A stretch of DNA of 63,801 nt, the filler included, from Licmophora abbreviata (lineage: Eukaryota): assembly GCA_900291995.1 (NCBI GenBank). It is 26 parts of 26 records of this genome, joined end to end, with 100 filler letters (N's around TTAATTAATTAA, not from the genome) between each part and the next. Parts side by side here need not be neighbours in the genome. Positions count along the whole stretch, not along the records: positions 10,346 to 13,569 come from OLMU01002167.1; 25 more parts are not named here. The stretch is one strand, 5' to 3'. Shown here in pieces: positions 3,272 through 28,357 of the stretch. A program made the position numbers and the translations under genes. Below the pieces are notes generated by a model. It was not told the origin of the DNA. It saw nothing but the letters and a program-made list of their open reading frames with translations, and made no database searches. Numbering within the stretch: position 1 is the stretch's first letter; each line of letters begins with the position of its first letter.

Positions 3272-4120
3272 CTATCGGCTTGAGGTGTGGATAGCGCGAA
3301 TGTCCGCCCCCATGCGCCGCGAGATTTTCTCGGCCATTGCCTCCAATGATGTCACGATTTTCCTTTCCTCTTCGGATGTTAGGGCATCAGCGGGTATGCT
3401 GGCAGCTATGCCCGCAACCGGCATGTTCTGGGAATCGAGCACTATTTTGGCGTAACACCGCATGCCGTCTGAAACCTGTTCATTATCAATGGAATAGCCC
3501 AGTTTCTTGAACTGATTCAGCTCTTCAATAAGAGCGTCGAGACTTTGCACACTCGTGGGAGTCAGCGGCTCGGGCAGGCCGTCGGCGTAGAGTCGACGCA
3601 CATCGCTTTCGCGCATTTGCATCAGAAAAGCCTTACCCGTTGCGGTGAAAGCGGCAGGTAACCTCGCACCGACGCTGAAACTGAAGAAACCCTGATATTT
3701 TTCGGAATTCCGTACAGCAAGATACACAACGTCAGCCCCATCGCGGACTGACAATGTGATCGTTGCGCCGGGGAAATCTGAGTCTGAATCCCAGATCGCA
3801 ATGAACTCGTCCATCACATCGATAGATCGACTGAATGCGTTCGACCAACGCATCACGTGAGGTCCGATTCTGAAGCTTTGATCGTCGCGCCTCATGAGCA
3901 TTTCATGCTCGACCAAAGTTGCGCAGATTCCGTACGCCGTGCTTTTGGGTATTCCGACACGTCTGCTTATTTCTGAGATGGTAAGTCGTTCATCAGAAGA
4001 GGAAATCAGGTCCATGATCTGGATTGTCCGGGAGAGCGCCGGAACCAGACGCCGGGATTCTGATGGGCGCTGATTATCAACTTTTTCTTTTTGACTGGTT
4101 AGTTTTTTTAATTTGTCCAT
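3272..4120 (-). CDS. IclR-family transcriptional regulator
   Basis: VPALSRTIQIMDLI...ISEISRRVGIPKSTAY HTH; RLPAAFTATGKAFL and GYSIDNEQ...GMRCYA effector-domain motifs. Confidence 0.93.
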   Translation of the reverse strand: MDKLKKLTSQKEKVDNQRPSESRRLVPALSRTIQIMDLISSSDERLTISEISRRVGIPKSTAYGICATLVEHEMLMRRDDQSFRIGPHVMRWSNAFSRSIDVMDEFIAIWDSDSDFPGATITLSVRDGADVVYLAVRNSEKYQGFFSFSVGARLPAAFTATGKAFLMQMRESDVRRLYADGLPEPLTPTSVQSLDALIEELNQFKKLGYSIDNEQVSDGMRCYAKIVLDSQNMPVAGIAASIPADALTSEEERKIVTSLEAMAEKISRRMGADIRAIHTSSR

Positions 4121-4700: not shown

Positions 4701-5549
4701 ATGGCAAAGCATTCACCAGTCATCGGACGCTACGTGACAATCGATGTTGATGGCTGTGAGTACAAGGTGTTCTACCTGCGCAACGGGCAGGGCATACCGC
4801 TGGTCTGTCAGCACACTGCCGGGTGTCACAACCATCAATGGCGCGATCTGCTGGAAGATGCCGAGGTCACCGAGAACTATGACGTCATCGCTTACGACCT
4901 TGCTCGCCATGGCAAGACCGATCCGCCTCTCAACCAAGAGTGGTGGAAGGAGGAATACAAACTTACCGCAGATCACTACATGAAATTCATCAACGCGTTC
5001 TGTGATGCTTTGGAATTGCGTAATCCGATTTTCATGGGGTCTTCGTTCGGCGGCAACGTCGCCCTGCAACTCGCCCTTTATCATCCGGATAGATATCGCG
5101 CGGTGATACCGGTGGAGGCGGCACATTATGCGCCCGGTTTTTATATCGACTGGTGGCACCATCCGCACGCGAACGCAGCGCAGGTTTGCGCCAGCGGTGT
5201 TTGGGATCTGATGGCCCCGCAAAGCCCCGACATGGACCGCTGGCTGACATGGCACTACTACACGCAGGGCTCGGAAACCTTCAAAGGGGACCTGTATTTC
5301 TACTCCGTGGACCATGATCTGCGTGGAAAGCTGGGTGGGATCGACACGTCGCGATGTCCGGTGGTGATGATGACCGGCACATATGACTATCTCACCCCAC
5401 CCGAAGCGACCGAGGAAACGGCCCGCCAGATCCCCGGCGGAATCTACATCGAGATGGAGGACATCGGCCATTTCCCGATGTCGGAAAATTACCCGCTGTT
5501 TCGGAACTACCTGAAAGAAGCTCTTCGTCTGATTGATGAGCGTAGCTGA
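4701..5549 (+). CDS. Alpha/beta-fold hydrolase
   Basis: GAGGAGG RBS; HTAG oxyanion region, YDLARHGK, nucleophile GSSFGG, GTYDYL acid, IGHFPM histidine. Confidence 0.9.
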   Translation: MAKHSPVIGRYVTIDVDGCEYKVFYLRNGQGIPLVCQHTAGCHNHQWRDLLEDAEVTENYDVIAYDLARHGKTDPPLNQEWWKEEYKLTADHYMKFINAFCDALELRNPIFMGSSFGGNVALQLALYHPDRYRAVIPVEAAHYAPGFYIDWWHHPHANAAQVCASGVWDLMAPQSPDMDRWLTWHYYTQGSETFKGDLYFYSVDHDLRGKLGGIDTSRCPVVMMTGTYDYLTPPEATEETARQIPGGIYIEMEDIGHFPMSENYPLFRNYLKEALRLIDERS

Positions 5550-5569: not shown

Positions 5570-6693
5570 ATGAAGATCATTGAGTTCAATGAACGTGGTC
5601 AGCAGGTCGAAAGCGAGTCGCGCTCCATAACGCCGTCTTCAGGAACATCTTTCCTTGCAAAAAGCCCGTCCATCCCGAGCCGCCCCAAGGTGTCCGTTAG
5701 CGCGGGCGTCGAGCTTCACATGTTCCAGACGGGCACGCTTCGGACGCGCAAGCACAACATCAAGATGAACCAGGGTGAGGAAATGTGGGAAATACCCGTG
5801 CCTTGGTATCTGTTGAAACACCCCATGGGCAATGTGGTCATAGATGGCGGAAACGCGGCGGAGGTCGCAATCGACAAGCGGGCGCATTGGGGCGATGTGG
5901 TCGACACCTACGATCCGCATATGGGGCTCAAGGAAAACTGTGTCGAGCAGTGCCGCTCTGTCGGCGTGGAGCCCGAAGACGTGCGCTATGTGGTGATGTC
6001 GCATCTTCATCTGGATCATACCGGTGCGGTCGGGCGCTTTCGCAATGCCCAGCATATCGTCCAGCGCGCGGAATATGACTATGCGNNNNNNNNNNNNNNN
6101 NNNNNNNNNNNNNNNNNNNNNNNNNNNNNTTAATTAATTAANNNNNNNNNNNNNNNNNNNNNNNNNNNNNNNNNNNNNNNNNNNNGCGCTATGTGGTGAT
6201 GTCGCATCTTCATCTGGATCATACCGGTGCGGTCGGGCGCTTTCGCAATGCCCAGCATATCGTCCAGCGCGCGGAATATGACTATGCGTTCAACCCGCAG
6301 TGGTTTGCGGCGGGAGGCTATATCCGGGCGGATTTTGATCGTCCAGGCCTCAACTGGAAATTCCTCGGCGGAGAGATGACCGACAATTTCGATCTCTTCG
6401 GTGATGATGTGATCAAGATGATCTTCACGCCCGGTCATTCGCCCGGTCATCAAAGCTTTCTCATCACCTTGCCGAAAACCGGGCCCGTCCTCCTGACGAT
6501 TGATGCGGCCTACACGATGGATCACTTTGAAAACAAGGCGTTACCTGGCTTTCTTACATCCGCCCAAGATGCGGCCAACTCTGTCGCGAAGCTACGTCGG
6601 ATCGCCGAAAGGACTGGCGCCAAGGTAATAGCGGGCCACGACATGCGACAGTGGGAAGGCATGCTTCACGCGCCCAAGTCGTTCTACGCATGA
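5570..6693 (+). CDS. attM: AttM/BlcC-like N-acyl homoserine lactone / gamma-butyrolactone lactonase (metallo-beta-lactamase fold), ~306 aa after closing the gap
   Basis: HLHLDH Zn motif, HNIKMNQG, IDGGNA, TPGHSPGHQS, TIDAAYT, KALPGFL and GHD closely resemble Agrobacterium AttM as I recall it. 5983-6085 is repeated at 6186-6288 across the linker, so this is one gene. Confidence 0.88.
6086..6185. other. Artificial contig linker (first of 25 in the window)
   Basis: N44-TTAATTAATTAA-N44 puts stops in all six frames and recurs identically up to 62117-62216. Confidence 0.97.
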
Positions 6694-6742: not shown

Positions 6743-7918
6743 ATGAAACTTTTGAAAACCGCAGCGATGATTGCCGGATTATCGGTGATCGGCGCGATGG
6801 GGGCGCAGGCGGAGGGGCTCGACGAGCTGAACCCCGATGTCGTGGAGCGTCTCTACAACCCCGAGCTGCTGGACCCGATGCAGCCAATCGGCGCCAGCGC
6901 GTTCCGCGATTTCGTGGCGAAAAACCCCCCGCCATGGAAAATCGGCTATGCCAGCTCTTATGCCGGCAATACGTGGCGCGCGGGCGTCATGCAGGAACTG
7001 CAAAACGAGATCATTCCCGAGTGGAAAGAGCTTGGCCTGCTGGACGAGGTGATCATCACTCAGTCTAATCTCAATGACAGCACCCAGATTCAGCAGATGC
7101 GCCAGCTGGTCGATCAGGGTGTGGATGCCATTTTCGTGTGCTGCTCGAACCCGACAGCGCTTAATCAGACCGTGAAATATGCCTATGACAACGGCGTTCC
7201 GGTGTTTTCACTGACCGGCTATCTGACATCGCCCTATTCGGTCAATTCCTCGGTCAACTACCAGGTGGCCGGATTTGAACTGGGCAAATGGATGGCAGAG
7301 GAAATCGGAGGCGCGGGCAATGTTCTCGTCGTCGAGGGCATTCCAGGCACCTCCGGCTCCGACAGCCAGGACCGCGGTATCAAGGCGGGTCTCGCGTCAT
7401 ATCCGGATATCAAGGTCGTCGGTTCGATTGCGGGTATGTGGACTGACCAGGTCGCCCAAGGCGAGGTCCAGAAATGGCTCGCGACCAATCCGGGCAAACT
7501 GGACGGTATCGTGGTGCAATCGGCGGCTGAAATGGGGGTCTTGCGGGCCTTGCAACAATCGGGCCGCGCGGAGGTTCCGATCACCATCGGCGGCGAGCTT
7601 GGAGCGCTTTGCTACTGGCGCAACAATCCCGATTACGTGTCGGCTGTCTATCAGGTCTGGCCGCCTCAGAACGAGGTTCAGCTTATCTGGAACATCATGA
7701 TGCGTACGCTTCAGGGGCAGGGACCGAAGATCCAGTCGATCCTCGTGGACCCCATCCGCATGACCTATGAAGACATCGAAAAACTGGTCCCTGCGGATTG
7801 CAACGAACAGGATCCAGGCTGGCTGCGGGTTGCGCCCGAAGCCTGGGGTTTGGATTCGGCTTTCCTGGACGATTTCTTCCTGCGTCCGGCTGATCCCACC
7901 AAGTTTCTCGAGAAATAA
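6743..7918 (+). CDS. ABC transporter substrate-binding protein, sugar/ribose-type
   Basis: Signal peptide ending AQA; QIQQMRQLVDQGVDAI and VLVVEGIPG periplasmic-binding-protein motifs. Confidence 0.9.
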   Translation: MKLLKTAAMIAGLSVIGAMGAQAEGLDELNPDVVERLYNPELLDPMQPIGASAFRDFVAKNPPPWKIGYASSYAGNTWRAGVMQELQNEIIPEWKELGLLDEVIITQSNLNDSTQIQQMRQLVDQGVDAIFVCCSNPTALNQTVKYAYDNGVPVFSLTGYLTSPYSVNSSVNYQVAGFELGKWMAEEIGGAGNVLVVEGIPGTSGSDSQDRGIKAGLASYPDIKVVGSIAGMWTDQVAQGEVQKWLATNPGKLDGIVVQSAAEMGVLRALQQSGRAEVPITIGGELGALCYWRNNPDYVSAVYQVWPPQNEVQLIWNIMMRTLQGQGPKIQSILVDPIRMTYEDIEKLVPADCNEQDPGWLRVAPEAWGLDSAFLDDFFLRPADPTKFLEK

Positions 7919-8001: not shown

Positions 8002-9786
8002 ATGCAAGCCCCAACCGAAAAGGCCACAACTGCCGCGAGAAGGGAGACCGTGTCGATCAAGGACGTTAAGAAGTTCTTTGGTCCGACCCGCGCGCTCGAC
8101 GGGGTGTCGTTCTCGGCGGTCGAGGGGGAAATCCATGCGATTGTCGGCGGTAACGGATGCGGCAAGAGCACGTTGGCGAAAGTGATTTCAGGTATTCTGC
8201 CAATAGATGGCGGCGCGGTTACCGTGCTGGGAGAAACCCCGAACTCCCCGGCCGAAAGTCGCGCCATCGGCATATCGACCGTCTATCAGGAAGTGCTTGT
8301 GGCGGACGAGAGCACGGTCGTCGATAATGTGTTCATGGGCTCGGACTCCCTTTTTACAAAGTCAGTGTCCTATGACGAAAAGGTGGCGCGTACCGCCCAA
8401 TTGATGAGTGATCTGTCCGGTGAGGACGTGGACCCGCACGGCCTTGTCGGCAACCTCCCCTTGGGCCTCAAACAATGGATCACCATCGCGCGCGGCATGC
8501 TCAGCGCGCCCCGTCTGCTGATCCTCGATGAGAGCTCAGCCGCTCTAGATTTCGACAGCACCGAGCGGTTGTTTCAGAAAATGCGGGACCTTCGCGATGG
8601 TGGCGCGACGATCCTGATCGTGACGCATCGGATCGCCGAGCTCGTGCGCATCGCTGACAGGGCGACGGTGCTGCGCGATGGCCGTGACGTGGCCGTGCTT
8701 GAAAAACAAGAGATCACCGAGCGCAACTTGCTTGCAGCGATGACCGGCGAAGAAGCCGACGCGGCGCATGGCAGTCTTGTCGCGCCCCAGCCCCAGAGCG
8801 GCGAAATCACGATGCGGGCCGATGGCCTTGTGCTTTGGGCGAATGGCAAGAGCTTCGATTTCGAATTACGCAAAGGCGAGATCGTGGGCGTTGCCGGTCT
8901 GGACGGGCAGGGACAGGACAGTTTCGTTCGTGTCCTCGCGGGCGTTCAATCCGCCGAGGCCGGTCTGCCCTTCATCATGACAGCTCAGGGCGAGGCAACT
9001 CCCGTTCGTGACCTGTTCGATGCGGTCGCGGGCCGCGTCGCTTACGTGTCGGGCGATCGCAAGCGTGAAGGAATTTTTGCCAGCCTGTCGATCTTCGAGA
9101 ACATGGTCATGCCGCTCTATGCCCAGAAGAAAAGCGGTGGGGTGCTGGGACTGATCGACTGGGAGACGTTGAATACGATTTTCGATCGGGAAACCAGGAA
9201 TCTTATGATCAAGTTCGGGGTGAAAAGCGACAGGATCACATCACTCTCGGGCGGCAATCAGCAAAAGGTGCTGATCGGGCGGGGCTTTGCGCAACGACCC
9301 AACACGATCGTTCTGAACGACCCCGCGCGCGGCATCGATGTCGGGGCCAAGACGGAACTCTACAAGCACCTGAGAAGTTTCGCGGAAAGCGGCCGGTCGG
9401 TCGTCTACATGTCCTCGGAAATCGAGGAATTTATCGGGTTCGCCACGCGGGTGATCGTGTTCCGCGACGGTGCCCCTTTCGATGCGTTCGACGGCCGGCG
9501 GTTTGACACGAAGCGGGTTCTCGAAGCCATGTTCGGGCAGACCGACGGCAGCGGTCTGGATACGGTCTATGGGCTGACGCCGACGCGCTCGGCCGATGCA
9601 GGCGACAGTGTCACTCCAAGGGATCGCAAAATCGGTTCGGTCGTCTATCCCCCCGCGGATGGCAGCTTGCCGCCGATCCGGGTCGTGCAGACACAACCCG
9701 ATCCCGTTAAGGCTTTCGACCGAAGCAAGATCCGGATCGTCGAATTCGGACGTGATGGCCAGATCGCCCGGCAGGGACGACCATGA
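8002..9786 (+). CDS. Sugar-type ABC ATP-binding protein (two NBDs) with a C-terminal extension
   Basis: Walker A GGNGCGKST, LLILDE, VTHR; second half DRKREG, LSGGNQQK, RGIDVGAK; ~80 extra C-terminal residues. Confidence 0.93.
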   Translation: MQAPTEKATTAARRETVSIKDVKKFFGPTRALDGVSFSAVEGEIHAIVGGNGCGKSTLAKVISGILPIDGGAVTVLGETPNSPAESRAIGISTVYQEVLVADESTVVDNVFMGSDSLFTKSVSYDEKVARTAQLMSDLSGEDVDPHGLVGNLPLGLKQWITIARGMLSAPRLLILDESSAALDFDSTERLFQKMRDLRDGGATILIVTHRIAELVRIADRATVLRDGRDVAVLEKQEITERNLLAAMTGEEADAAHGSLVAPQPQSGEITMRADGLVLWANGKSFDFELRKGEIVGVAGLDGQGQDSFVRVLAGVQSAEAGLPFIMTAQGEATPVRDLFDAVAGRVAYVSGDRKREGIFASLSIFENMVMPLYAQKKSGGVLGLIDWETLNTIFDRETRNLMIKFGVKSDRITSLSGGNQQKVLIGRGFAQRPNTIVLNDPARGIDVGAKTELYKHLRSFAESGRSVVYMSSEIEEFIGFATRVIVFRDGAPFDAFDGRRFDTKRVLEAMFGQTDGSGLDTVYGLTPTRSADAGDSVTPRDRKIGSVVYPPADGSLPPIRVVQTQPDPVKAFDRSKIRIVEFGRDGQIARQGRP

Positions 9787-11363
9787 AGATCGCCGAGATC
9801 AAGGACCCGGTCGCCGTCGAGACCGAGACCGTCGAGACGCCGCGCAGCACTGCAGGGCGGTCGGATCCATCGATGATTGTCCCGATCACCCTGTTTTATG
9901 TGCTCATGATCTTCGCCGTGATCCGCTCCCCAAGCCTGGTCAGCGCATCGGGGATTGGCAGCGCGGTGATCGTGGCAACGCCACTGATCTTGGCGACCTA
10001 TGCGCTGATGGCTTCGGTGATTTCGGGGCGCGGCACGGTCGATCTGTCGATCGGGCCTCTCATCGGGTTCATCAACGTCACGCTCGTCCAGTTGGTGACA
10101 GCGGGATATTTCAGCAATCCCTTCGCGTTTTTCGGCCTCGCCTTCCTGCTGGGGGCGGCCTATCAGCTGATTTTCGCGCTGATTGTGGTGTACGTACGTG
10201 TCCAACCCATCATCGTGTCGCTCAGCGGTTTTCTTGCGCTTTCAGNNNNNNNNNNNNNNNNNNNNNNNNNNNNNNNNNNNNNNNNNNNNTTAATTAATTA
10301 ANNNNNNNNNNNNNNNNNNNNNNNNNNNNNNNNNNNNNNNNNNNNTGTCCAACCCATCATCGTGTCGCTCAGCGGTTTTCTTGCGCTTTCAGGTATCAAT
10401 CTGGTGATCCTGCCGCGCCCGGGTGGCATGGCGCCCGAGTGGATGGCGACCTGGGGGCTGGGAACGACTGTTTTTTCTCCGGTCCTCTGGCTGCTGGTGA
10501 TTGCGACACTGGCGTGGGTCCTGTTTACGCGCACGGCGTTTTACACGCATCTGCGTTTGATGGGGTCAGATGAACGTGCGGCCTACACCTCGGGTGTTCC
10601 CATCGCGATCGTGCGTATCGGCGCGCACATCATTTCAGGTCTTTTCGCCGCCCTTGCCGCCATCACATTTACCGCCCTGATCTCTTCGGGAGATCCATCG
10701 CAGGGCACGACATATACCTTGATTGCCGTCACCGCCTTGGTACTTGGCGGTGCCTCACTGGCGGGGGGCAGGGCAAGCGTTTTCGGCTGCGCTCTTGGGG
10801 CGTTGAACCTCTATCTGATTACCTTCGTGCTGGCCACGTTCAACTTCGGCGCGGTCCAGAGCTTCGTGACCGATCTGGCCTATGGCACGATCCTTGTTGG
10901 CTCGCTGCTTCTGACCCTGGTGCTGCCACTGATCCAACGCTATGCGCGGAACTTTTCGCCGTTGCTCTACTTCGTGGCGCTCGGGGTGGTGGTATTGGGC
11001 GTTGTTCTGCACGCGACATATGATTACGGCACAGTTTCCGATGCTTATGTCGTGCCGCCTTTCCCCGGCCCGCTCGACGCGGTGAGCACCATGCGGGGTA
11101 TGTTCGAGACCGGAGCGCTGGACCCGCAGACCGAAGCGCTGCGCGCGGCTGCGCGACCGCTGATTTGGGGTGTTGTGATCCTCGTGGTGCTGGCCGGGCT
11201 GGCTCGAGTGGCGGTGACCGAAGGCAAGACACGTGACGTCGGCCCGTTGGTGTTTCTCGTGATTGGGCTGATCGTTCTGGTCACGGCCTACTCCATCAGT
11301 CAGCCCGATGGCTTCTCCTTCGGCACCGGCTCGGATGCCCCGCATGAGGAGGGCAATCCATGA
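9783..11363 (+). CDS. ABC permease (RbsC-like), ~477 aa after closing the gap
   Basis: VDLSIG, GSDERAAYTSGV, LVLGGASLAGGRAS. 10199-10245 is repeated at 10346-10392 across the linker. ATGA overlap with the ATPase gene. Confidence 0.9.
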
Positions 11364-12739
11364 GCCAGACAGACGCCAGCCCCCAACAACTGAGCCTTGC
11401 CACCCGCTTGTTGGGGTTGATCGCAGGCGGCATATTGACCCTGCTGAGCGTCATCTTTGGTTTTGTTCAGGATCAACCTGTTCAAAGCATCATTCTTTAT
11501 GCGCTGGCCACGATGGCGCTGTTCTTCTGGGCGTGGAAGTTCATCCTTCCGCATTTTCTGGTCGAACGCGAACATACCGAAGACACGCATGGACCCGGCC
11601 CGTTTCGGCGGATCTGGATCGACTATCGGCCGTCGCTGATCGGTCTGGCGCTGATTGTTCTCGCGTTCTTCATTCTGGCGGCAAGCATCGACGGATTTCT
11701 CAACGGCTGGAACGTCCTGTCGCTGATCATCCTGCTGGCCATCATCGTCGCGACGCGCACGATCGGCCCACTCTTCGAGACGAACCGCTCGGCCTTCATT
11801 GGTATCATGGTCCTGATCGGGCTGTTTTCTGTCGGTGCGATGAATATCGAAGGGTTTTCTTCGGGCTGGAACATCAAGTCGATGCTGCTCTTTGCCTCTT
11901 TTCTTGGCCTTGCGTCGGTCGGGCAGACCCTCGTTGCGCTGTTGGGCGGGCTGGATTTGTCGATCCCCTTCGTGATCGGGGCCGCGAATGTGGGCCTGTT
12001 GTATCTTATCAGCCTCGGGGTGCCGCCATGGCTGGCCTTTTGCATCGTGCTGGTGATCGGGGCGTTGCTGGGGGTGATCAACGGTCTGCTCAGTTATCGT
12101 CTTCAGGGGCAGGCGCTCATCGTGACGCTCGGCACCGGGTTTGCCATTTCGGGCGGTGTTCAGATCATCACGTCCATCGGTACGGCCTATGGCGGCAACG
12201 TCTTCGGCACGGTTCCCGGTTGGCTGTCCAATCTGGCGGCCATGAATGGCAAGACATTCGGCATTCCGGTGCCCGCAGCCATTTTCATCTGGGCTCTGAC
12301 CGCGCTCATCCTGGTCGTGGGGCTCCGCGTCACAGTTTACGGTCGCTATCTCTATGCTCTCGGGGTGAACCGGATATCAGCGAAACGGGTGATGGTCTCG
12401 GAACTGAAATACTGGGTGATGGCCTACACGGTTTCAGGGTTCTTCTCGGCCTTGACCGGAGCGCTTTTGCTTGGCTGGTCGGGGGGCGGCTTCATTGGTG
12501 TGGGCGAGCAGTATCTGTTCCTCACACTGGCGGCTGTGGTCGTCGGGGGGACATCTCTTCTGGGCGGACACGGCGGCTACGGCTTTACCGTCATCGGCGT
12601 TTTGGTGCTTCAGGTCCTGTCGTCGTTCCTCGTCGGAATCGGTCTCGATTATGAATGGCAGCAGTTCATCTACGGCCTGCTGATCTTGCCCATGGTCGCG
12701 CTTTACGCGCGCTCGCCCCACATACGCACGCAGATATGA
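11360..12739 (+). CDS. ABC permease (RbsC-like), 459 aa
   Basis: GQTLVALLGGLDLSI, GRYLYALGVN, AAVVVGGTSLLGGHG; ATGA overlap with the upstream permease. Confidence 0.92.
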   Translation: MSQTDASPQQLSLATRLLGLIAGGILTLLSVIFGFVQDQPVQSIILYALATMALFFWAWKFILPHFLVEREHTEDTHGPGPFRRIWIDYRPSLIGLALIVLAFFILAASIDGFLNGWNVLSLIILLAIIVATRTIGPLFETNRSAFIGIMVLIGLFSVGAMNIEGFSSGWNIKSMLLFASFLGLASVGQTLVALLGGLDLSIPFVIGAANVGLLYLISLGVPPWLAFCIVLVIGALLGVINGLLSYRLQGQALIVTLGTGFAISGGVQIITSIGTAYGGNVFGTVPGWLSNLAAMNGKTFGIPVPAAIFIWALTALILVVGLRVTVYGRYLYALGVNRISAKRVMVSELKYWVMAYTVSGFFSALTGALLLGWSGGGFIGVGEQYLFLTLAAVVVGGTSLLGGHGGYGFTVIGVLVLQVLSSFLVGIGLDYEWQQFIYGLLILPMVALYARSPHIRTQI

Positions 12740-12776
12740 CCGGACTCGAGGATCATATGAATTGGAGGTTCGCTAC

Positions 12777-13484
12777 ATGACCGTCTTTGAAACACCAGAC
12801 CTGACTGCGGCAAGCTATTCTGCGGCCCTCTTCGGATTGATCGCCACGAGTGTGCTCTTGCTGATGGGCACGGCTTGGGTCAGGGGGCACTGGAAGCTGG
12901 TCGTGACGCTGTGCGCCTGCTCCACCATCATCGGGGCACTGGCCGCGTATGAGGCCCGGGCCGCCTGGCAAAGTGGAGCTGTCCCCGTGGTTTACCATTA
13001 TGTCGGCTGGGTCGTGACGATGCCCATTCAGGTGCTGGCGCTCTTCTTCATGGCCAATTGCGTTGGCAAGGTCTCGATGGGCCTGTTCTGGCGGCTGGTC
13101 GTGGTCTCGGTTCTGATGGTTTTCGTTCGCTACCTTGGCGAGGCCGGATACATGCATCCGACCCTTGCCTTCCTCATCGGGTTGATCTTCTGGCTCTACG
13201 TTCTCGGAGAGCTGTTTTTCGGCAAGATGGATCTTGCGATCCGGGATTCTCTGAACAAGCCGGTGATCAGAGGCTACTTCTGGCTGCGTCTGATCGTGAC
13301 CATCGGCTGGGCGATCTATCCGCTTGGCAATTTCATCACCAGCTTTGGCGGGTATGATGACGGTGGCGCCTTAGCAGTCGCCTATAACGTGGCCGATTTC
13401 CTCAATCGAATGGCTTTCGGTGCCGCTGTCTTGTCGGCTGGCATGCTCGCCATGCAGTCAGCCGATGAAAAGGTCCAAGGCTGA
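12777..13484 (+). CDS. Proteorhodopsin-like 7TM opsin lacking the Schiff-base lysine (flotillin-associated rhodopsin type)
   Basis: GGAGG RBS; helix C PVVYHYVGWVVTMP, YLGEAG, helix F IGWAIYPLG, helix G YNVADFLNRMAFG where proteorhodopsins have YNLADFVNKILFG. Confidence 0.88.
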   Translation: MTVFETPDLTAASYSAALFGLIATSVLLLMGTAWVRGHWKLVVTLCACSTIIGALAAYEARAAWQSGAVPVVYHYVGWVVTMPIQVLALFFMANCVGKVSMGLFWRLVVVSVLMVFVRYLGEAGYMHPTLAFLIGLIFWLYVLGELFFGKMDLAIRDSLNKPVIRGYFWLRLIVTIGWAIYPLGNFITSFGGYDDGGALAVAYNVADFLNRMAFGAAVLSAGMLAMQSADEKVQG

Positions 13485-13530
13485 TGCGAATTCCTGATGA
13501 TATGAACACTCTACCTGGAGGGCTGATGCC

Positions 13531-15025
13531 ATGAACGGTGCAGACGTTATTGCAATCATAATCCTTGCCNNNNNNNNNNNNNNNNNNNNNNNNNNNNNNN
13601 NNNNNNNNNNNNNTTAATTAATTAANNNNNNNNNNNNNNNNNNNNNNNNNNNNNNNNNNNNNNNNNNNNCGGCGGACGCTCAACCCTGATCAACTGCGCG
13701 AACTGGTGGTGGGCCGCTTTGTGGACGGCATGGGGGCCGCCTCTGCGGTCATGACGCTGGAAGAGATTCAGGAGAACCGCCGCAAATTCGCGCAGGAAGT
13801 CCGCAAGGAAGTGGCCGAAAGCCTGGCGCTCGACGGGTTGGAGCTTGAATCGGTCTCGCTGACCTCTCTGGATCAGGCCGATATCTCGATGTTCAACCCC
13901 TCGAACACCTTCGACTCCGAAGGTTTGACCCGACTTGTCCAACAGATTGAAAGCCGCAAGAAAACGCGCAACGACATCGAAAAGGACACGGATATCGCGA
14001 TCCGCTCCAAGAACCTTGAGGCCGAGAAAAAGGCCCTCGATATCGGACGGGATACGGAATACGCGCGGCTGTTGAACGAATCCGAGATCTCGATCGAGCG
14101 TGCGCAGCGCAAGGCCGAAATCGCGCGCGAGAACGCAGCGCGGGAGCGCGAGATCGAAGAAATCCGCATCAGCGAGCGTGAACAGGTCGAGCTTGCGCGC
14201 ATCAAGAGCGAAACCGAGATCGAGTCGATGGAGATCAAGCGCCGCGAGCAGATCGAGATCGAAGAACAGCAACGCGAAATCGCGCTGTCGCAGAAATCGA
14301 AGGAACGCTCAGAAGTCCAGGCCCTGACCGAGGAGGCCGTTGCCGCTGCCACTGAGGCGCGCGAACGGGTTCACACGATCCGCGACGTGGAAATTGCCAA
14401 CCGCCATAAGACGGTCGAATTGATCGAAGCGGCCAAAGATGCCGAACGAGAGGCCGTTCGCATGAAGATCCTTGCCGAAGCCGAAGAGCGGGCGGCGCAA
14501 AACCGGGCCGAGGCCGTGCGCATCGCGGCCTCGGCCGAGGAAGAGCGCCTGCGCGTCGAAGCGGAAGGCGCCACCAAGCTCAACGAGGCTGAAAACCTTC
14601 GCTCGGAGGCCAGCCGCCGCAGCGCCTTGCACAAGCGTCTTGTCGATAATCTGCCGTCGATCATCCGCGAAAGCGTCAAACCGATGGAACGGATCGGCGA
14701 GATCAAGATCCTGCACGTGGATGGTCTGCCCGGCTTCTCGAACGCGGCAGGTGGTGGCGGCGAGGGCGGTTCTGGCAAGGGCGAGGGAAGCTCACCTCCG
14801 AGCGAGGGAAATCTTGCCGATCAGGTGGTCCAGTCCGCTCTGAGGTATCGCTCCCAAGCTCCGTTCGTGGACCAACTTCTGGGGGAGATCGGTATGGACC
14901 CCGGGAACATTCACAGACCCGAGGCACTCCGCGATCTTTCCAAGATCGTCTATTCCGAGCCGGCGTCAGCGAGTGATGGACCCGCCCCGAAAGGGCCCAA
15001 GCGTCCATCCGCATCCAAGAAGTGA
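13531..15025 (+). CDS. Flotillin / SPFH band-7 protein (YqiK type), interrupted by an unresolved gap
   Basis: GGAGG RBS and MNGADVIAIIILA before the gap; after it RTLNPDQLRELV..RFVD, GLELESVSLTSLDQ, FNPSNTFDSEGL, AE-rich coiled coil, SVKPMERIGEIKI. The two pieces could belong to two different genes. Confidence 0.88.
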
Positions 15026-15521: not shown

Positions 15522-17462
15522 ATGCCAGCTCCATCGCCTGTCATGTGGATCTTGTTGTTTGGGTTCGTCTATATTGCCGTCGTGCTCTTCTGGGCCCGCC
15601 AGGCTGCCACGGCCAATGGAAACTACCAGAGCTATTTTTCAGCAGGCCACTCTCTGTCGCCTTGGGTCAGCGCGCTGGTGCTGGCCGGCAGTTCGGTGTC
15701 CGCGTGGTTTACCCTTGGCTCTGCCGACATCCTGGCTCGCGACGGCTTCGTTCACGGATATCTCCTGCAGGCTGGTGTCTTGTTGGCGCTGCCCGGCGTC
15801 CTCTTTTTCAAGCGCAGTTGGTTCATCGCGCAACGCTATCGGGTCTCGTCTCAGGCCGAGCTTTTCAAACTGTATTACGACAGCCAGGCCCTTGTCGTGA
15901 TCGTCGCCTGCGTGGCGCTGTTGTTCGCGGTGGGTTTTGCCGGCATGCAACTTCGTGCGATCTCGCAGATCGCATCGTCTGTGTCCGGTGGATCGATCTC
16001 GGCCTTTACCATAGGCTGCGCACTCAGCCTCATACTGCTGGGCTACGTCGTTATCGGCGGGATGCGGGCAATCGGATTCCTTGGTGTCTTGCAGACGGTC
16101 AGCCTGATCTCGGCAACCCTGGTGCTCAGTTTTCTGATCTTGGTCGAGGCGGGCCTGATCGGGGCGATCAACGCGCGGATGCAGGCCTTGGCGGCAGACA
16201 GTGCCGGGGCGCAGGCTTTCGAAGTCAGCGGCGTGATCCAATTCGTGGCAGGGCTCGGGCGGGGTAGTTTCTATGACCATCCTGTTTCGGCTGTCACCAA
16301 TCTGAGTTCCGCCTATGCCCTGCTCGGGATCGGGCTTAGCCCATTCGCCCTGAAGATCGTTCTGTCCACACGCAACACGAAGGCAATTGCCGCTGGACAA
16401 ACCTGGGTTCTGGCGGGGTTCTTTGGCTTGCTTGTTCTTTTGCCCGTCGGTGTCATCGGCGCCGCGGGCCTTGGCCGCCCGGAATTCATCAGCCACAGCT
16501 ATCTGGCGGCTTTGGCACAATCGTCGCCATGGCTTACGGCCTGGGTCGTGCTGGGTTTTGCCGCCGGCATGCAGGTGATGGCCGGATTGGCGCTTCTGGT
16601 AGCGGCAGAAACTGTTGTACGCCATGTCTACAAGCCCTTCTTCGCAAGCGCGATGTCGCGCAGGCAGACTGTCACCCTGACCCGGATCTTTGTGGCTGTT
16701 CTGGCGGTTGGTGTCGTGTTGATGGCCTTTCTTGCACCGGTCAGCACGTCGGCTCTGGGGGCTTTTGCGCTCTCGGCATCGGCGCAGTTGTTGATCCCGA
16801 TGCTGGGTCTGTGCTGGTTCGGCTGGATGACACGCCCTGCCGTTCTGGCTGGCGTGGGCTTCGGTTTGTTCGCGGCTTTCGTGACCGATGCGCTCGGGAT
16901 CGGCATTCTTGGCTATCTGGGGCTGGACGTGCCATGGGGCCGCTATCCCTGGACCATCCATTCGGCCGCGTGGGGCCTGTTTTTCAATATTCTCGTGTGT
17001 CTGCTTGTCTCGGCTATCAGCCAGAACGCCGCCAGAACCGAGTTTCGGGAGCATCTGCGGGCCTTTGTTTCCGAGGCATTGAGCGGGCAGGGCACGGCTC
17101 CCTTGAACAGCTATGCCTGGGCGGCCGGACTTGCTTGGGGATTTCTTGCCGTGGGGCCGGGGCTGATTTTTGGGAATTATGCCTTTGTCGGTGATGACGG
17201 CTGGAGCATGGATTTTCCATCGCTTTGGGTCTGGGCCATGCTGTTCTGGCTTCTGGGCGTGACCCTTGTTTGGCTTCTCGCGTACCGAATGCAGATGGCG
17301 TCGCATGTCGAGTTGGACATCACATCCTATGAGCCCCCCCCGACCCTGCGGCCCGACCAATCCGCCGCAGAGGCGCGACGTCTGAGAAGCCTGATCATGT
17401 TTGCTCTGGCAGGTGCGGGATTGGTCATCCTAACGGTTTGGAGTTTTGGGGGTGCGGGATGA
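15522..17462 (+). CDS. Sodium:solute symporter (SSS) family protein
   Basis: YFSAGHSLSPW, SVSAWFTLG, YVVIGGMRAIG..LQ; many TM helices; 646 aa. Confidence 0.88.
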   Translation: MPAPSPVMWILLFGFVYIAVVLFWARQAATANGNYQSYFSAGHSLSPWVSALVLAGSSVSAWFTLGSADILARDGFVHGYLLQAGVLLALPGVLFFKRSWFIAQRYRVSSQAELFKLYYDSQALVVIVACVALLFAVGFAGMQLRAISQIASSVSGGSISAFTIGCALSLILLGYVVIGGMRAIGFLGVLQTVSLISATLVLSFLILVEAGLIGAINARMQALAADSAGAQAFEVSGVIQFVAGLGRGSFYDHPVSAVTNLSSAYALLGIGLSPFALKIVLSTRNTKAIAAGQTWVLAGFFGLLVLLPVGVIGAAGLGRPEFISHSYLAALAQSSPWLTAWVVLGFAAGMQVMAGLALLVAAETVVRHVYKPFFASAMSRRQTVTLTRIFVAVLAVGVVLMAFLAPVSTSALGAFALSASAQLLIPMLGLCWFGWMTRPAVLAGVGFGLFAAFVTDALGIGILGYLGLDVPWGRYPWTIHSAAWGLFFNILVCLLVSAISQNAARTEFREHLRAFVSEALSGQGTAPLNSYAWAAGLAWGFLAVGPGLIFGNYAFVGDDGWSMDFPSLWVWAMLFWLLGVTLVWLLAYRMQMASHVELDITSYEPPPTLRPDQSAAEARRLRSLIMFALAGAGLVILTVWSFGGAG

Positions 17463-17531
17463 TGTTTTGCCCAAAAAGCACAGAGGCCTGTCCGGGCTTT
17501 GCGTGCAGAAACACTGGATGAAGGATCACTC

Positions 17532-18787
17532 ATGACGCCGTTCACATTCAACACCTCGCCCAGCATTCGATTTGGTGCCGGAATGATTGCCAATCTGGGT
17601 GACATCGTGCGCGCAGAAATCGGTACGCGGGTGCTTCTGGTGACCGATCCCGGCATGATGGCGACCGGGATCGTGGATCGGGTCTGCGATGTGCTCCGGA
17701 CGGCAGAGGTGGACGTCGTGCTCTATGCCGATGTTCAGGCTGATCCGCCGGAAGCGGTCATCGAGGCGGCGACACAGGCCGCCAAAACCGGCTCTGTCGA
17801 GGGGGTCGTCGGTCTTGGGGGCGGTTCGTCGCTTGACGTGGCCAAGTTGGCGGCGCTCTTGGCAACCGGACAGCAAAACCTTTCCGACGTCTACGGTGTG
17901 GGGAATGCCCGTGGCCCCAAACTTCCGTTGATCCTGATCCCGACAACCTCGGGCACCGGGTCTGAAGTGACGCCAATCTCGATCGTGACGACCGGCAAGA
18001 GCGAGAAGATGGGCGTGGTCTCGCCGGTTATCCTGCCCGAGATCGCCTTGCTCGATCCCGATCTGACACTGGGTCTGCCCCCCCATGTCACGGCCGCGAC
18101 CGGTATCGATGCCATGGTCCACGCCATCGAGGCTTACGCCTCGGCCAGCCCAAACAACAATCCCGTGTCCCGCAGTCTGGCCAAAGAGGCTCTGCGATTG
18201 ATGGGCGGTGCTCTGGAGCGGGCCGTCACGACGCCAGATGACATCGCGGCGCGTACAGACATGCTTCTGGGGTCGATGCTGGCCGGACAGGCTTTCGCCA
18301 ACTCGCCGGTTGCCGCCGTGCACGCGCTGGCCTATCCGATCGGTGGTCATTTCAAGGTGCCGCACGGGTTGTCGAATGCGCTCGTTCTTCNNNNNNNNNN
18401 NNNNNNNNNNNNNNNNNNNNNNNNNNNNNNNNNNTTAATTAATTAANNNNNNNNNNNNNNNNNNNNNNNNNNNNNNNNNNNNNNNNNNNNCATGTGCTGC
18501 GCTCCAATGCCGTGACCTCGCCCGAACCTTACGCCGAGATCGCCGCCTGCGCCTTTCCCGCACTTGAAGGGCTGGCGTCACAGGCGGCTGCTTCGGCCTT
18601 TATTGAGGCGATGCAAGACCTTTCGAAAAGATGTGGCTTGCAGCAGCACTTGCGCGATGTCGGCATTGCGCAGGACGATCTGCCCCTTCTGGCCCGTGAT
18701 GCGATGAACCAGACACGGCTGCTCGTGAACAATCCGCGTCCTTTGACCGAGGCGGATGCGCTGGCGATCTATCAGGCGGCTTGGTAG
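17532..18787 (+). CDS. Iron-containing alcohol dehydrogenase (split by a linker)
   Basis: GLGGGSSLD, PTTSGTGSE, DAMVHAIE, HALAY, HGLSNA; C-terminus NNPRPL after the linker. Confidence 0.92.
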
Positions 18788-21060: not shown

Positions 21061-21843
21061 CTAGTCTGCGGCACTCTGTGCGAGCGATGCCGTGTCCAAC
21101 CCGGATTGATGGAGGATTTCATCTACAACGTAATCGACACCCGTTCCCTTGCGAAGAGATGTCATGAAAAACGGTCTGCCACCGCGCATGCCCGTCGNNN
21201 NNNNNNNNNNNNNNNNNNNNNNNNNNNNNNNNNNNNNNNNNTTAATTAATTAANNNNNNNNNNNNNNNNNNNNNNNNNNNNNNNNNNNNNNNNNNNNTGT
21301 CATGAAAAACGGTCTGCCACCGCGCATGCCCGTCGCGTCGCGCTGCATCACGTCAAGCGATGCGCCGACATGCGGGGCCAGATCGATCTTGTTAATGATG
21401 AGAATGTCGGATCGGGTCAGGGCCGGGCCACCTTTGCGCGGAATGTCTTCGCCCGCGGCCACATCGATTACATAGATCGTCAAATCGGCCAGTTCCGGAC
21501 TGAAGGTGGCGGACAGATTGTCACCGCCGGATTCGATCAGAATGATATCGAGATCGGCATGCCGTGCCTGCATCTCGGCCACCGCCGCCAGATTGATCGA
21601 GGCGTCCTCGCGGATCGCGGTGTGCGGGCAACCGCCGGTTTCCACGCCCAACACGCGGTCGGCGGGCAGGATCTGCATCCGCATCAGCGCTTCGGCATCT
21701 TCCTGCGTGTAGATATCGTTGGTGATGACGGCGATGGAAAACCGCGCTTTCAGGGTCTCGGCAAGGCGCGCGGTGAGGGTTGTCTTGCCCGCGCCGACAG
21801 GGCCGCCGATCCCGATGCGCAGAGGGCCATTGAGGTTGGTCAT
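21061..21843 (-). CDS. ureG: Urease accessory GTPase UreG (split by a linker with overlapping flanks)
   Basis: [27 protein letters not shown]-terminus continues left of the linker to TAG at 21061. Confidence 0.95.
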
Positions 21844-22487
21844 GACTGAAAAAGCCTCGGTTGCTGGGTTTCGTGGAGCAGGGATGCGATATCCGACAGG
21901 AATACATTGCTATAGAGGTCGCGGGCTTGGGCCTTGACCTCTTCCTGCGCGATCCGCTGGCAGAGGGGGGAAAGGGCCGCGAGCACGGCTTGTCCTTCGG
22001 TCTGACCCAGTGGACAGATCCGCACCGCCGCAAGGATCAGGTTCGAGGCAAAGCTCTGCAGATAAAGACCCGCCGCGTCATATCCGTCGATCCCTTGAAG
22101 TGCTGCCGCACGCCCCACCGCCACAGGCAGAACCACATCCGGCAAGTTCAGGCCCCAGACCGCGTTGGTCGTGCGCACAAAGGCCGAGCCTTGCCGCTGT
22201 GCTTCGCGCTGTCGTTCCTGCGAGCAGGCGAAGGCGCGGGCCTCCGCATCAAGCGTCAGGATATCCGCACACCCTTCGGCGCGATAGGCCCGCCAGAGAA
22301 ACCCGGCGTCAGCCCGTCCCGAGCCGTGTTCCAGCACATCCTCCATCCAGATTTGCAGGCTGCCCGCGTCATGCACCGCCCCTTGCGCCATTGCGGTTTC
22401 AAGCCCGTGTGAATACGCGAACCCTCCAAGCGGATAGTTTGGCGACAGCCATTGCGACAGCGTCAAGAGACCTGAGTCAATGGGCAT
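21840..22487 (-). CDS. ureF: Urease accessory protein UreF
   Basis: [40 protein letters not shown]. Confidence 0.93.
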
Positions 22488-23084
22488 GTGCGCTGGCCCC
22501 GTGGTCATGCCCGTGTGTGCGCCCGTGGCCATAGGCGCCGCCTTCGGGGGTGAAGGGCGCAAGTGCAGGTGCTAGGCTGGCGCCCAGATGCTCCAGCATG
22601 TGAGCGATCACCGGATCGTTCTGGATCACAAGGCGGTTCGCCTCGATCTGGCAGGGCGTGTGCCGGTTGCCGATATGCCAGGCGAGCCGTGGCNNNNNNN
22701 NNNNNNNNNNNNNNNNNNNNNNNNNNNNNNNNNNNNNTTAATTAATTAANNNNNNNNNNNNNNNNNNNNNNNNNNNNNNNNNNNNNNNNNNNNGTGCCGG
22801 TTGCCGATATGCCAGGCGAGCCGTGGCAGATCCGGGCCGGTGACGATCAGCACCTCCTCTGCTGCGGCACAGACCATCACCCGGCTACCATCCTCAAGCT
22901 CAAGCGCGTCGCCGTCATCCAACGAAGTGCTTTGCGCCAGATCGACGATGAAATCGCGCCCGTCATCGGTGCTCAGACGTTTGCGGCGCAGAAAACGTTC
23001 GTCGTAATCCAGTGTGCAAGGCTCGGCCGGTCCGGACCAATCGCCCTTGCGGATCAGACGCTGTGCAATGGGAAGTGCCGGCAT
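22477..23084 (-). CDS. ureE: Urease accessory protein UreE (split by a linker)
   Basis: LDYDERFLRRKRL, LAWHIGNRH, PEGGAYGHGRTHGHDH His-rich tail. Confidence 0.93.
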
Positions 23085-23094
23085 CTTGGTCCCC

Positions 23095-24641
23095 TCAGAA
23101 CATGAAATAGCGTTGCGCCATCGGCAGCACCTTGGCGGGTTGGCATGTCAGCAATTCGCCATCGGCGCGCACCTCGTAGGTTTCGGGATTGACCTCGATA
23201 TGGGGCGTCGCGTTGTTCAGGAGCAGGTCTTTCTTGCCTATATTGCGGGTATTGCGCACCGCAAGCGTGCGCTTGGCCAGCCCGAGAGAGGCGCCGATGC
23301 CTTCGGCTTGTGCGGCTTCTGAAACGAAGGTGACGGCGGAATGTTCAACCGATCGGCCATAGGCGCCGAACATCGGTCGGCTGTAGACCGGCTGCGGCGT
23401 CGGGATCGAGGCGTTGGGATCGCCCATTTGCGCCATGACAATGCTGCCGCCCATAAGGACCATCTCGGGCTTCACGCCGAAAAAGGCCGGGTTCCACAGG
23501 ACCAGATCGGCGCGCTTGCCGATCTCGATGCTGCCGATCTCATGGGCGATGCCGTGGGCGATTGCGGGGTTGATGGTGTATTTCGCGATATAGCGGCGGA
23601 CGCGCAGGTTGTCGTTCTCTCCGGTCTCGTCGCTGAGCCTGCCGCGCTGCTTTTTCATCTTGTCTGCGGTCTGCCATGTGCGGATGATCACCTCGCCCAC
23701 ACGGCCCATCGCCTGACTGTCCGAGGCAATGATCGAAAACGCGCCCATGTCGTGCAGGATGTCTTCGGCGGCGATGGTTTCGCGGCGGATGCGGCTTTCG
23801 GCAAAGGCCACATCCTCGGGGATCGACTTGTCGAGATGGTGGCAGACCATCAGCATGTCGAGATGCTCTTCCAGCGTGTTGACGGTGAAGGGGCGCGTCG
23901 GGTTGGTCGACGAGGGCAGGACATGATCCTCGCCGCAGATGCGGATGATATCCGGTGCATGGCCGCCGCCTGCTCCCTCGGTATGGAAGGCGTGGATCGT
24001 GCGACCCTTGATGGCGGCAAGGGTGTTTTCCACAAAGCCGCTTTCATTCAGCGTATCGGTGTGGATCATCACCTGCACGTCCAGCGCATCCGCAACCCCC
24101 AGACAGCAGTCGATGGCGCCAGGCGTCGTGCCCCAGTCCTCATGCAGCTTGAGCGCGCATGCCCCGGCCAGCACCTGTTCTTCCAAGGCCGCAGGCAATG
24201 AGGCGTTGCCCTTGCCAGCAAATGCCAGGTTCATCGGGAAGACATCCGCCGCCTGCAGCATGCGCCCGATATGCCAAGGACCCGGTGTGCAGGTCGTGGC
24301 CAGCGTTCCATGCGCGGGACCGGTGCCGCCGCCCAGCATCGTGGTCAGGCCGGAATGCAGCGCGTCGTCGATCTGCTGCGGGCAGATGAAGTGGATATGG
24401 CTGTCGAAGCCGCCTGCGGTCAGGATGCGCCCCTCGCCGGCAATCGCCTCGGTGCCGGGACCGACGATGATGTCGACGCCGGGCTGCGTGTCGGGGTTTC
24501 CGGCTTTGCCGATGGCGTGGATGCGCCCATCGCGAAGGCCCACATCGGCCTTGTAGATGCCCGTGTGATCGACGATCAGCGCATTGGTGATGACCGTATC
24601 CACCGCGCCCGCCGCGCGTGTCACCTGGCTTTGGCCCATCC
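23095..24641 (-). CDS. ureC: Urease subunit alpha (5' end in gap)
   Basis: [53 protein letters not shown]. Confidence 0.98.
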
Positions 24642-24741
24642 NNNNNNNNNNNNNNNNNNNNNNNNNNNNNNNNNNNNNNNNNNNNTTAATTAATTAANNN
24701 NNNNNNNNNNNNNNNNNNNNNNNNNNNNNNNNNNNNNNNNN

Positions 24742-25029
24742 CTGTTGGTTGAAGCCGAAAATGCGCCGTGCGCCCGAAATCGGGATCAGGGCGACTTCGC
24801 GGCGCTGGCCCGGCTCGAAACGCACGGCGGTGCCTGCGGCGATGTCGAGACGCAGGCCGCGTGCAGCGTCCCGGTCGAAATCGAGGGCGGGGTTTGCTTC
24901 GGCGAAATGGTAATGGCTGCCCACCTGAACCGGCCGGTCGCCAGTATTGGCGACCATCAGCACGGTTTGCTCGGCGCCCGCGTTCAGCGTCAGATAGCCT
25001 TCGGCGGGGAACACCTCGCCGGGGATCAT
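24742..25029 (-). CDS. ureB: Urease subunit beta (3' end in gap)
   Basis: [37 protein letters not shown]. Confidence 0.96.
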
Positions 25030-25211
25030 GCGGGCACCTTCCTGATATCGCGCAGAAGCGTCAGGGCCAGCACCGCGGTCCAGGTCAGAAGCAGCAGCAG
25101 CGCGGCTGGAAGCCATGATCGCATCGCATCATCAAGGACGATGGGCGCGACATCCGCCACGGCGGGCATCGTGGCGGCCAGAAGAACGAAGGGCAGGACA
25201 AGAGGCAGCAT
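25026..25211 (-). CDS. Small hydrophobic protein between ureA and ureB
   Basis: AAGGAG RBS, 61 aa, signal-like N-terminus plus one TM segment, ATGA overlap with ureB. Confidence 0.55.
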
Positions 25212-25236
25212 GGAAATGTCTCCTTCTTTGGCAGGA

Positions 25237-25539: not shown

Positions 25540-25542
25540 GGA

Positions 25543-27074: not shown

Positions 27075-27101
27075 CTGTCGTTTCCTTCTGGATCGATGGG
27101 C

Positions 27102-28345: not shown

Positions 28346-28357
28346 GATCGTGTCTCC

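Follow-up and report, generated by a model that had tools for sequence, protein, structure and literature searches.

The stretch of DNA analysed here (the window; 63,801 nucleotides, filed under Licmophora abbreviata, assembly GCA_900291995.1) holds a gene for a microbial rhodopsin homologue, placed between a set of importer genes and a flotillin gene, within a cluster that also encodes a lactonase, a sodium:solute symporter family (SSF) transporter and an IclR-family regulator (Table 1). We refer to the encoded protein as FAR, for flotillin-associated rhodopsin; its nearest named record comes from Roseovarius litoreus DSM 28249, whose opsin is 99% identical. An earlier note, made from the sequence alone, had described the gene as an opsin with the retinal-binding Lys replaced by Arg and the proton-pumping motif erased, in an intact frame behind a good ribosome-binding site. 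The frame is indeed open over 235 codons, and GGAGG stands 8 nt upstream of the ATG.

The earlier note had also proposed a Bac_rhodopsin profile search, a phylogeny and an estimate of the ratio of nonsynonymous to synonymous substitutions (dN/dS) as checks. The profile search gave a significant match to Pfam Bac_rhodopsin (PF01036; E 2.6e-18, 66.8 bits, cut-off 24.6), with residues 13–218 of FAR lying on profile positions 6–217 of 224, which places the protein in this family. In the HMMER alignment, DFLNR in helix G aligns with DFLNK of PsFAR, the FArhodopsin of Pseudothioglobus, whose Lys is K213, and the proteorhodopsin PsPR has DFVNK there; FAR lacks the Schiff-base Lys of this helix and has Arg211 (CGA codon, 13407–13409) at its position. 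Across a 78-row alignment, the key columns of FAR read H74, G77, T81, M82, Q85 and A88 in helix C, R118 in helix D, and D207 and R211 in helix G, whereas the proteorhodopsin representatives carry R, D, T, V, Q or L, E, G, D and K at the same columns. The DTE motif and Lys of a proton pump are thus represented by G77, T81 and A88 with R211. Every substitution that the earlier note had listed in proteorhodopsin numbering (R94 to His, D97 to Gly, Thr kept, Gln, E108 to Ala, and Arg after a retained helix G Asp) is right for this protein, with one qualification. The Thr is kept in FAR itself, but FAR is exceptional in this, as Ser occupies position 81 in 120 of 121 sequences (FAR plus its 120 closest database homologues, at 64–93% identity, the set used for all residue counts below). 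Because Arg211 replaces the Schiff-base Lys, we class FAR, on its sequence, as an opsin-fold protein rather than a retinal-binding rhodopsin. Its G-S/T-A motif is reminiscent of the TSA motif of halorhodopsins; we did not assign FAR to that class, as anion pumping needs retinal.

The AlphaFold2 model of FAR (predicted local distance difference test 93.4, predicted template modelling score 0.90) has a seven-helix opsin fold. Its best Foldseek match was PsFAR (9r21), with a template modelling score (TM) of 0.94 and a root-mean-square deviation of 1.4 Å over 233 columns; the top matches were all microbial rhodopsins, the proteorhodopsins among them scoring TM 0.86. PsFAR is also the best solved relative by sequence (E 2e-46), with proteorhodopsins at 1e-31 or weaker. 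For the phylogeny we used a quick IQ-TREE analysis of the 57 rows that spanned 195 or more of the 210 core positions, the other 21 of the 78 having been left out as partial. The 23 rows with Arg at the Lys site and four rows with Leu there formed a single clade (SH-aLRT 99). Its sister (91) is a protein that has kept the Lys and matches PsFAR at 7.8e-95; all of these fell among the proteorhodopsins. The phylogeny therefore puts FAR with the flotillin-associated rhodopsins. Its gene has the features by which FArhodopsins are recognised: a separate clade, a flotillin directly downstream on the same strand, BPD_transp_2 permeases upstream and an SSF symporter downstream. Judged by sequence and gene order, FAR belongs to the FArhodopsin clade of the proteorhodopsin family, in its lysine-less branch and within an Arg subtype. 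It falls outside the marine FArhodopsin subgroup, which keeps the Lys and has a bona fide proteorhodopsin in the same genome, and outside the Rh-noK class, which is related to xanthorhodopsins and stands in tandem with a functional rhodopsin, since the neighbours of FAR are a permease and a flotillin gene. The earlier note was thus sound as to a light-independent seven-helix protein, and had missed both the downstream flotillin and the published group.

FArhodopsins were defined by Haro-Moreno et al. (2023, mSystems, PMC10308929). The available sections of that paper name Q, T, L or R as the residues that replace the Lys in lysine-less FArhodopsins, and state that these always adjoin flotillin on contigs of sufficient length. 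They also describe the FArhodopsins of marine data as exclusively Lys-bearing, in genomes that always hold a bona fide proteorhodopsin. The freshwater lysine-less FArhodopsins (a branch of Fig. 3A; 'Freshwater unknown taxon' in Table S4) belong to the same clade as FAR: rows of Table S4 such as Tobar13m-C806 carry VVYHYVGW, SMPLQV, VRYLGE and ADILNRMAFG, the helix C and helix G motifs of FAR, and the contig Tobar13m-C806 is itself one of our loci (L039). Those sequences came from short metagenomic contigs of unknown taxon, on which the presence of another rhodopsin was undecidable. By contrast, the carriers found here are named Rhodobacterales and Hyphomicrobiales, without a second rhodopsin and without the retinal-forming dioxygenase blh, and the lysine-less FAR of the window is that of a Roseovarius, whereas the marine FArhodopsins in the available sections of the 2023 paper all bear Lys. 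We found no paper that places FARs in these Rhodobacterales and Hyphomicrobiales taxa, and sections 14, 15, 17 and 18 of PMC10308929 make no mention of an AttM lactonase or an IclR regulator. Since FArhodopsins, the Arg variant and this very clade (Table S4) are in print, FAR is of a kind already known; what is new are its carriers and its gene cluster.

According to the available text of Kovalev et al. (2025, bioRxiv 10.1101/2025.04.29.651185), PsFAR was shown by experiment to bind no retinal despite its Lys, H84 and E120 fill and block its retinal pocket, and S54 is said to stabilise the free Lys. FAR resembles PsFAR in its long helix G and in D207 and Q85, which correspond to D209 and Q87 of PsFAR. 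It differs in having R211, H74 and G77 where PsFAR has K213, R76 and D79, and M82, R118 and G53 in place of H84, E120 and S54; moreover, PsFAR, as far as described, coexists with a proton-pumping paralogue, whereas Arg-type FAR does not. The proteorhodopsins GPR and BPR (7b03, 4kly) share the Pfam family and fold of FAR at 28–29% identity in the structural alignment; unlike them, FAR is without the Schiff-base Lys, the D97-type acceptor, the E108-type donor and R94, and its carriers are without blh. Rh-noK proteins have in common with FAR a microbial rhodopsin fold minus the retinal Lys, but in the account of PMC10308929 they are related to xanthorhodopsins and lie beside a working rhodopsin gene, while FAR lies beside flotillin with no rhodopsin neighbour.

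The state at the Lys site is widely conserved. A total of 707 database proteins match FAR at E ≤ 1e-10, and among the 121 sequences of the counting set the Lys site holds R in 118, V in two and C in one. H74, G77, Q85 and R118 are each present in all 121, D207 in 120 and M82 in 116. The positions that line the pocket vary less than any other part of the protein; R118 occurs in every lysine-less row examined, the Leu type included. Against its nearest orthologue FAR has a dN/dS of 0.036 (Nei–Gojobori), and the 738 pairs with dS of 0.05–1.5 reach at most 0.37, with a median of 0.18. FAR is under strong purifying selection, and the loss of the Lys is a conserved state and not a chance lesion. In one metagenome-assembled genome (MAG) of Mesorhizobium, built from long reads to judge by its contig name, FAR lies in two adjacent frames (L054; G100:C1:158263-158878). 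The split marks either a pseudogene or an error in sequencing.

A second lysine-less subclade, with Leu at the Lys site, is found in the genus of the nearest genome, G001 (L005, L006, L007 and L055, in G003, G025 and G035). These proteins have R74, a His at the position of PsFAR H84 (H82) and L211, in a RAVHQARDL pattern. A strict exchange of charges, with H74, M82 and R211 of the Arg type traded for R74, H82 and L211 in the Leu type, was considered and rejected because the representative P0130 combines R74 with R211.

The genes around FAR are listed in Table 1. The window contains 50 runs of 44 N, in pairs, which hide parts of its sequence and do not preserve length: relative to L008, an unmasked orthologous locus that served as reference for gene lengths and for the cluster search, the lactonase region is longer by 203 nt and permease 1 by 147 nt, and flotillin is shorter by 207 nt. 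The lactonase, permease 1, flotillin and iron-containing alcohol dehydrogenase genes appear split only as an artefact, because masked N runs cross them and their L008 orthologues are intact (flotillin 566 aa, iron-containing alcohol dehydrogenase 401 aa). The flotillin ATG follows the FAR stop by 47 nt (13484 to 13532).

Table 1 Features of the FAR gene cluster (window coordinates).
Feature	Position	Strand	Remarks
IclR-family regulator	3272..4120	-	divergently transcribed
Alpha/beta hydrolase, 3-oxoadipate enol-lactonase-like	4701..5549	+	below family cut-off
AttM/BlcC-family metallo-lactonase	5570..6693	+	Pfam Lactamase_B on both halves; N runs 6086-6185
Periplasmic binding protein (Peripla_BP_4)	6743..7918	+	
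Double ATP-binding cassette (ABC) ATPase, sugar-importer type	8002..9786	+	start set by offset from L008; longest open reading frame starts at 7948
ABC importer permease 1 (BPD_transp_2)	9783..11363	+	N runs 10246-10345
ABC importer permease 2 (BPD_transp_2)	11360..12739	+	ends 37 nt before FAR start
GGAGG ribosome-binding site	12764..12768	+	8 nt before FAR ATG; read from sequence
Lysine-less flotillin-associated rhodopsin (FAR, Arg type)	12777..13484	+	235 aa; open reading frame, free of N runs
Flotillin (N-terminal transmembrane helix, SPFH, Flot domain)	13532..15025	+	Pfam Flot 9.9e-35; N runs 13570-13669
Sodium:solute symporter family transporter (SSF)	15522..17462	+	646 aa
Iron-containing alcohol dehydrogenase	17499..18446	+	3' part enters N runs 18391-18490

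The cluster is conserved across the carriers. Using tblastn with the L008 genes against 47 genome loci, we found flotillin in all 47, both the symporter and FAR (the latter at half length or more) in 46, permease 2 in 45, the ABC ATPase and permease 1 in 44 each, the binding protein and the lactonase in 43 each, the hydrolase and the IclR regulator in 42 each, and the iron-containing alcohol dehydrogenase in 33, with most misses at contig ends. Gene order is constant over these loci: the divergent IclR gene, then hydrolase, lactonase, binding protein, ATPase, permease 1, permease 2, FAR, flotillin, symporter and iron-containing alcohol dehydrogenase. The spacer between FAR and flotillin ranges from -4 to 81 nt (45 loci).

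Family models give some indication of the chemistry involved. The lactonase of L008 belongs to the AttM family (NF045700, 422.2 bits; cut-off 390), and its hydrolase is closest to the 3-oxoadipate enol-lactonases of NCBIfam, below their cut-off. The alcohol dehydrogenase comes nearest to the ErcA and 4-hydroxybutyrate dehydrogenase models without reaching their cut-offs (250 bits for the latter model, where 500 are required), the IclR regulator stays below all equivalog cut-offs, and no succinic semialdehyde dehydrogenase was seen among the cluster genes with these models. For Agrobacterium, the available part of PMC5924552 describes AttM/BlcC, with BlcR as the IclR-type repressor, as degrading gamma-butyrolactone and acyl-homoserine lactones. 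The Leu-type cluster in G025 comprises the binding protein, ATPase, hydrolase, two permeases, FAR, flotillin and symporter, and no match to AttM or to the iron-containing alcohol dehydrogenase was found in its 20 kb. Since the Leu-type cluster keeps the importer, flotillin and symporter without an AttM match, the constant company of FAR is formed by the transporters and flotillin and not by the lactonase; with Leu at the Lys site and no AttM match in this sister group, Arg and the lactonase are therefore not partners family-wide.

Two cluster genes have unusual properties of their own. The hydrolase (window 4701-5549; L008 2275-3123) shares 83–91% identity with its L008 counterpart in 40 of the 41 other loci that hold it, and 60% in L041; across Rhodobacterales and Hyphomicrobiales it is clearly more conserved than FAR (62–79%) or any other cluster gene. 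The permeases are long (459 aa for permease 2; about 477 aa for permease 1 in L008), and the BPD_transp_2 match of permease 2 begins only at residue 172, leaving an N-terminal membrane extension of about 170 aa that is absent from ordinary sugar-type permeases. Further downstream, at 21250-30811 and 30866-35132 of the window, lie urease genes (UreF, alpha subunit, UreD), a urea-type ABC importer, a histidine kinase and a LuxR-type response regulator. Possible urea-degrading genes are noted in marine FAR clusters in the available sections of PMC10308929; any link of the urease genes in the window to the FAR cluster is tentative.

The 47 genome loci belong to Rhodobacterales and Hyphomicrobiales; many are on MAGs, and others in cultured strains. 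Named carriers are Hoeflea alexandrii, Zhengella mangrovi, Rhizobium aquaticum, Rhizobium terricola, Gellertiella hungarica, Ensifer adhaerens, Metarhizobium album, Pararhizobium antarcticum and a Stappia strain, and the record that bears one FAR locus is, by its title, a Martelella plasmid. Statements about whole genomes are based on G001, the nearest genome (99% complete), and on genomes reached through related loci, completeness being stated for only some of the carriers. The 39 Arg-type carrier genomes searched measure 2.9–8.0 Mb, and with genomes of this size the carriers are not streamlined. A Bac_rhodopsin search found no second rhodopsin in 38 of them; in the remaining one, the Mesorhizobium MAG, the two adjacent matches are the halves of FAR itself. 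No heliorhodopsin was found in G001. A search for blh (PF15461) scored in both control genomes, which hold Lys-bearing rhodopsins, and in none of the 43 that carry a lysine-less FAR, namely the 39 Arg-type carriers, G027 and three genomes of the Leu type. Within the window, none of the 51 translated reading frames matched a carotenoid- or retinal-synthesis family in Pfam, in a sequence of which N runs hide parts; to that extent the statement of the earlier note that no retinal-synthesis genes accompany the opsin was correct. Its proposal of a light-independent protein is well supported by the missing Lys, the blh result, the lack of a second rhodopsin and the retinal-free state described for PsFAR in the available text of Kovalev et al.

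Any rhodopsin match was found in only six of 37 genomes of the genus of G001, and in the FAR tree the Roseovarius FAR nests in a Hyphomicrobiales clade (SH-aLRT 99), with other Rhodobacterales branching elsewhere. An open reading frame with an integrase core (rve_3) lies upstream of the cluster, at 1644-2726 on the minus strand. Together, the integrase, the few rhodopsin matches in the genus and the nesting in the tree suggest that the cluster was transferred between orders. One genome of the same genus, G010, encodes a xanthorhodopsin-like, Lys-bearing rhodopsin with blh about 4 kb downstream (G010:C142:16892-17560 and 21395-22117), so light-using and retinal-free opsins are present in different species of a single genus.

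With confidence a little above even, we propose that FAR is a retinal-free, light-indifferent protein of opsin fold that acts as the intramembrane partner of flotillin. The cluster flotillin is the only gene with a Flot domain in G001, and no NfeD-domain protein was detected in that genome by a search that scored in 11 of 14 reference genomes. In addition, the start of flotillin, with its N-terminal transmembrane helix and the beginning of the SPFH domain (window 13532-13569; L008 10755-10880), shows about 95% column identity over 42 orthologues from two orders, an invariance that, at the level of sequence, is unusual for a simple membrane anchor. These three observations, the sole Flot gene, the missing NfeD protein and the near-invariant helix, are the indirect grounds for proposing FAR as the partner. 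NfeD–SPFH pairs such as yuaF-floT of Bacillus subtilis have a membrane protein gene directly upstream of, and co-oriented with, the flotillin/SPFH gene; the analogy to FAR and flotillin would be one of gene position only, with no relation in sequence or fold.

According to this proposal, FAR would carry no retinal and do nothing with light. Its former retinal pocket would be filled by its own side chains, R211, M82 and R118, of which M82 sits at the position of H84 and R118 at that of E120 in PsFAR. D207 would pair with R211 in place of the Asp–Lys contact, holding the fold without a chromophore, and Arg211 would then be mainly structural, offering a permanent charge where the Lys had been. 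By analogy with PsFAR, the oligomer is probably a pentamer. FAR and flotillin together would organise a membrane microdomain around the ABC importer and symporter of the operon, and these transporters may feed a catabolic route of the lactone or hydroxy-acid type.

Several points weigh against this proposal. The association of FAR with flotillin and the transporters is genomic only; a complex prediction (25-row FAR alignment against flotillin residues 1-235, also 25 rows) scored 0.00 in both runs, was made without controls and is evidence neither way. The plugging role is assigned to M82, R118 and R211 from the alignment, and a cavity for a ligand or anion would be compatible with the same residues. 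Kovalev et al. (bioRxiv 10.1101/2025.04.29.651185), in the text available, describe aromatic residues at the H84 position in all FARs, whereas Met stands there in 116 of our 121 homologues and blocks less rigidly. S54 of PsFAR is Gly53 here, and the internal network therefore differs from that of the solved protein. Among the buried charges, R118, R211 and H74 outweigh D207, a net positive balance that would favour a bound anion. A consensus scan of the L008 cluster gave two promoter-like sites where 5.2 were expected, and 15 terminator-like sites against 13.0 expected, not above chance, and so sets no limits to the operon. RNA-library contigs about 94% identical to the window cover permease 2, FAR and the start of flotillin (11400-13560) in four of four algae-associated metatranscriptome runs (X15, X16, X18, X19), and a single contig of 8637 nt spans this whole stretch. 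Coming from a relative, they are a weak hint that proves neither transcription nor a single transcript.

The net-positive core, in which Gly replaces the D97-type counterion, and the fact that the pocket-lining positions are the most invariant ones also fit an opsin that binds a ligand. Here the emptied pocket (R211, R118, H74, D207) would take up an anion or an amphipathic carboxylate, for instance a ring-opened lactone, an acyl-homoserine, a hydroxy acid or a fatty acid, and FAR would sense the operon's substrate or hand it over. The earlier note had suggested a narrower form of this, with the Arg as a possible binding site for a ring-opened lactone or similar carboxylate. The operon, with its AttM-family lactonase above cut-off, its enol-lactonase-like hydrolase and its IclR regulator, resembles Agrobacterium blcABC/BlcR as described in the available part of PMC5924552, and the solved entry 8cnk, by its title a 'retinal-free proteoopsin bound to decanoate', indicates that an empty proteorhodopsin pocket can hold a carboxylate. 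We nevertheless think this explanation unlikely: the Leu-type sister group has no Arg at the Lys site and no AttM match within 20 kb, but keeps the core of transporters, FAR and flotillin; no transducer or signalling domain is fused or adjacent to FAR; and the equivalent positions of PsFAR, in the account available, plug the pocket.

Less probable again is a role as a lipid scramblase or modifier of membrane properties, in which the opsin fold would move or order lipids without retinal and flotillin would confine it to a microdomain. A proteorhodopsin gives E. coli light-independent benefits through scramblase activity, according to the available part of PMC10730872, and flotillins are described as scaffolds of lipid microdomains in that of PMC10308929. 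A role of this kind would also explain why FARs persist whether the Lys site holds K, R, L, Q or T, but it leaves unexplained both the invariant buried polar residues H74, R118, D207 and R211 and the fixed linkage to one ABC importer and a symporter.

A more elaborate version of ligand binding, which we consider rather doubtful, would make FAR a chemoreceptive opsin for a lactone-derived carboxylate, an acyl-homoserine or an anionic amphiphile. As the obligate partner of flotillin, in the place held elsewhere by NfeD, it would gate or assemble the importer and symporter into a substrate-responsive microdomain.

It is hardly credible that Arg-type FAR helps a co-resident proton-pumping proteorhodopsin by forming hetero-oligomers that tune the pump. 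This hypothesis was proposed for the marine FARs, whose genomes, in the available sections of PMC10308929, always hold a bona fide proteorhodopsin, and it is contradicted for the Arg clade: FAR is the sole Bac_rhodopsin match in 38 of the 39 genomes and is present as two halves in the 39th, and neither heliorhodopsin (in G001) nor blh (in the 43 carriers) was detected, in a set of genomes of which only some have a stated completeness. That FAR is a decaying proteorhodopsin relic, on its way to a pseudogene after losing its Lys, has next to no probability and is refuted by the selection and conservation data: a protein without Lys, D97 counterion and E108 donor is what one would expect of a dead pump, and one MAG has FAR in two frames, but dN/dS never exceeds 0.37 around its median of 0.18, hundreds of database matches exist, the replacement residues are themselves invariant and synteny is kept across two orders.

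FArhodopsins are a newly described and abundant group that, in the available sections of PMC10308929, is treated as a feature of streamlined aquatic bacteria, with aid to a co-resident proton pump as the main hypothesis. The Arg branch is now placed in named Roseovarius, Rhizobium, Ensifer, Hoeflea and their relatives, cultured strains included, and the lack of any other rhodopsin and of a retinal-forming enzyme in these carriers argues against the pump-helper idea for this branch. With culturable strains such as the Roseovarius litoreus type strain, Rhizobium aquaticum, Ensifer adhaerens Lc04 and Hoeflea alexandrii, and a defined operon of 10 genes that includes an identifiable lactonase, the function of FAR can be tested by ordinary genetics. 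If the chemoreceptive reading were true, FAR would be a bacterial opsin that works on a chemical signal rather than on light.

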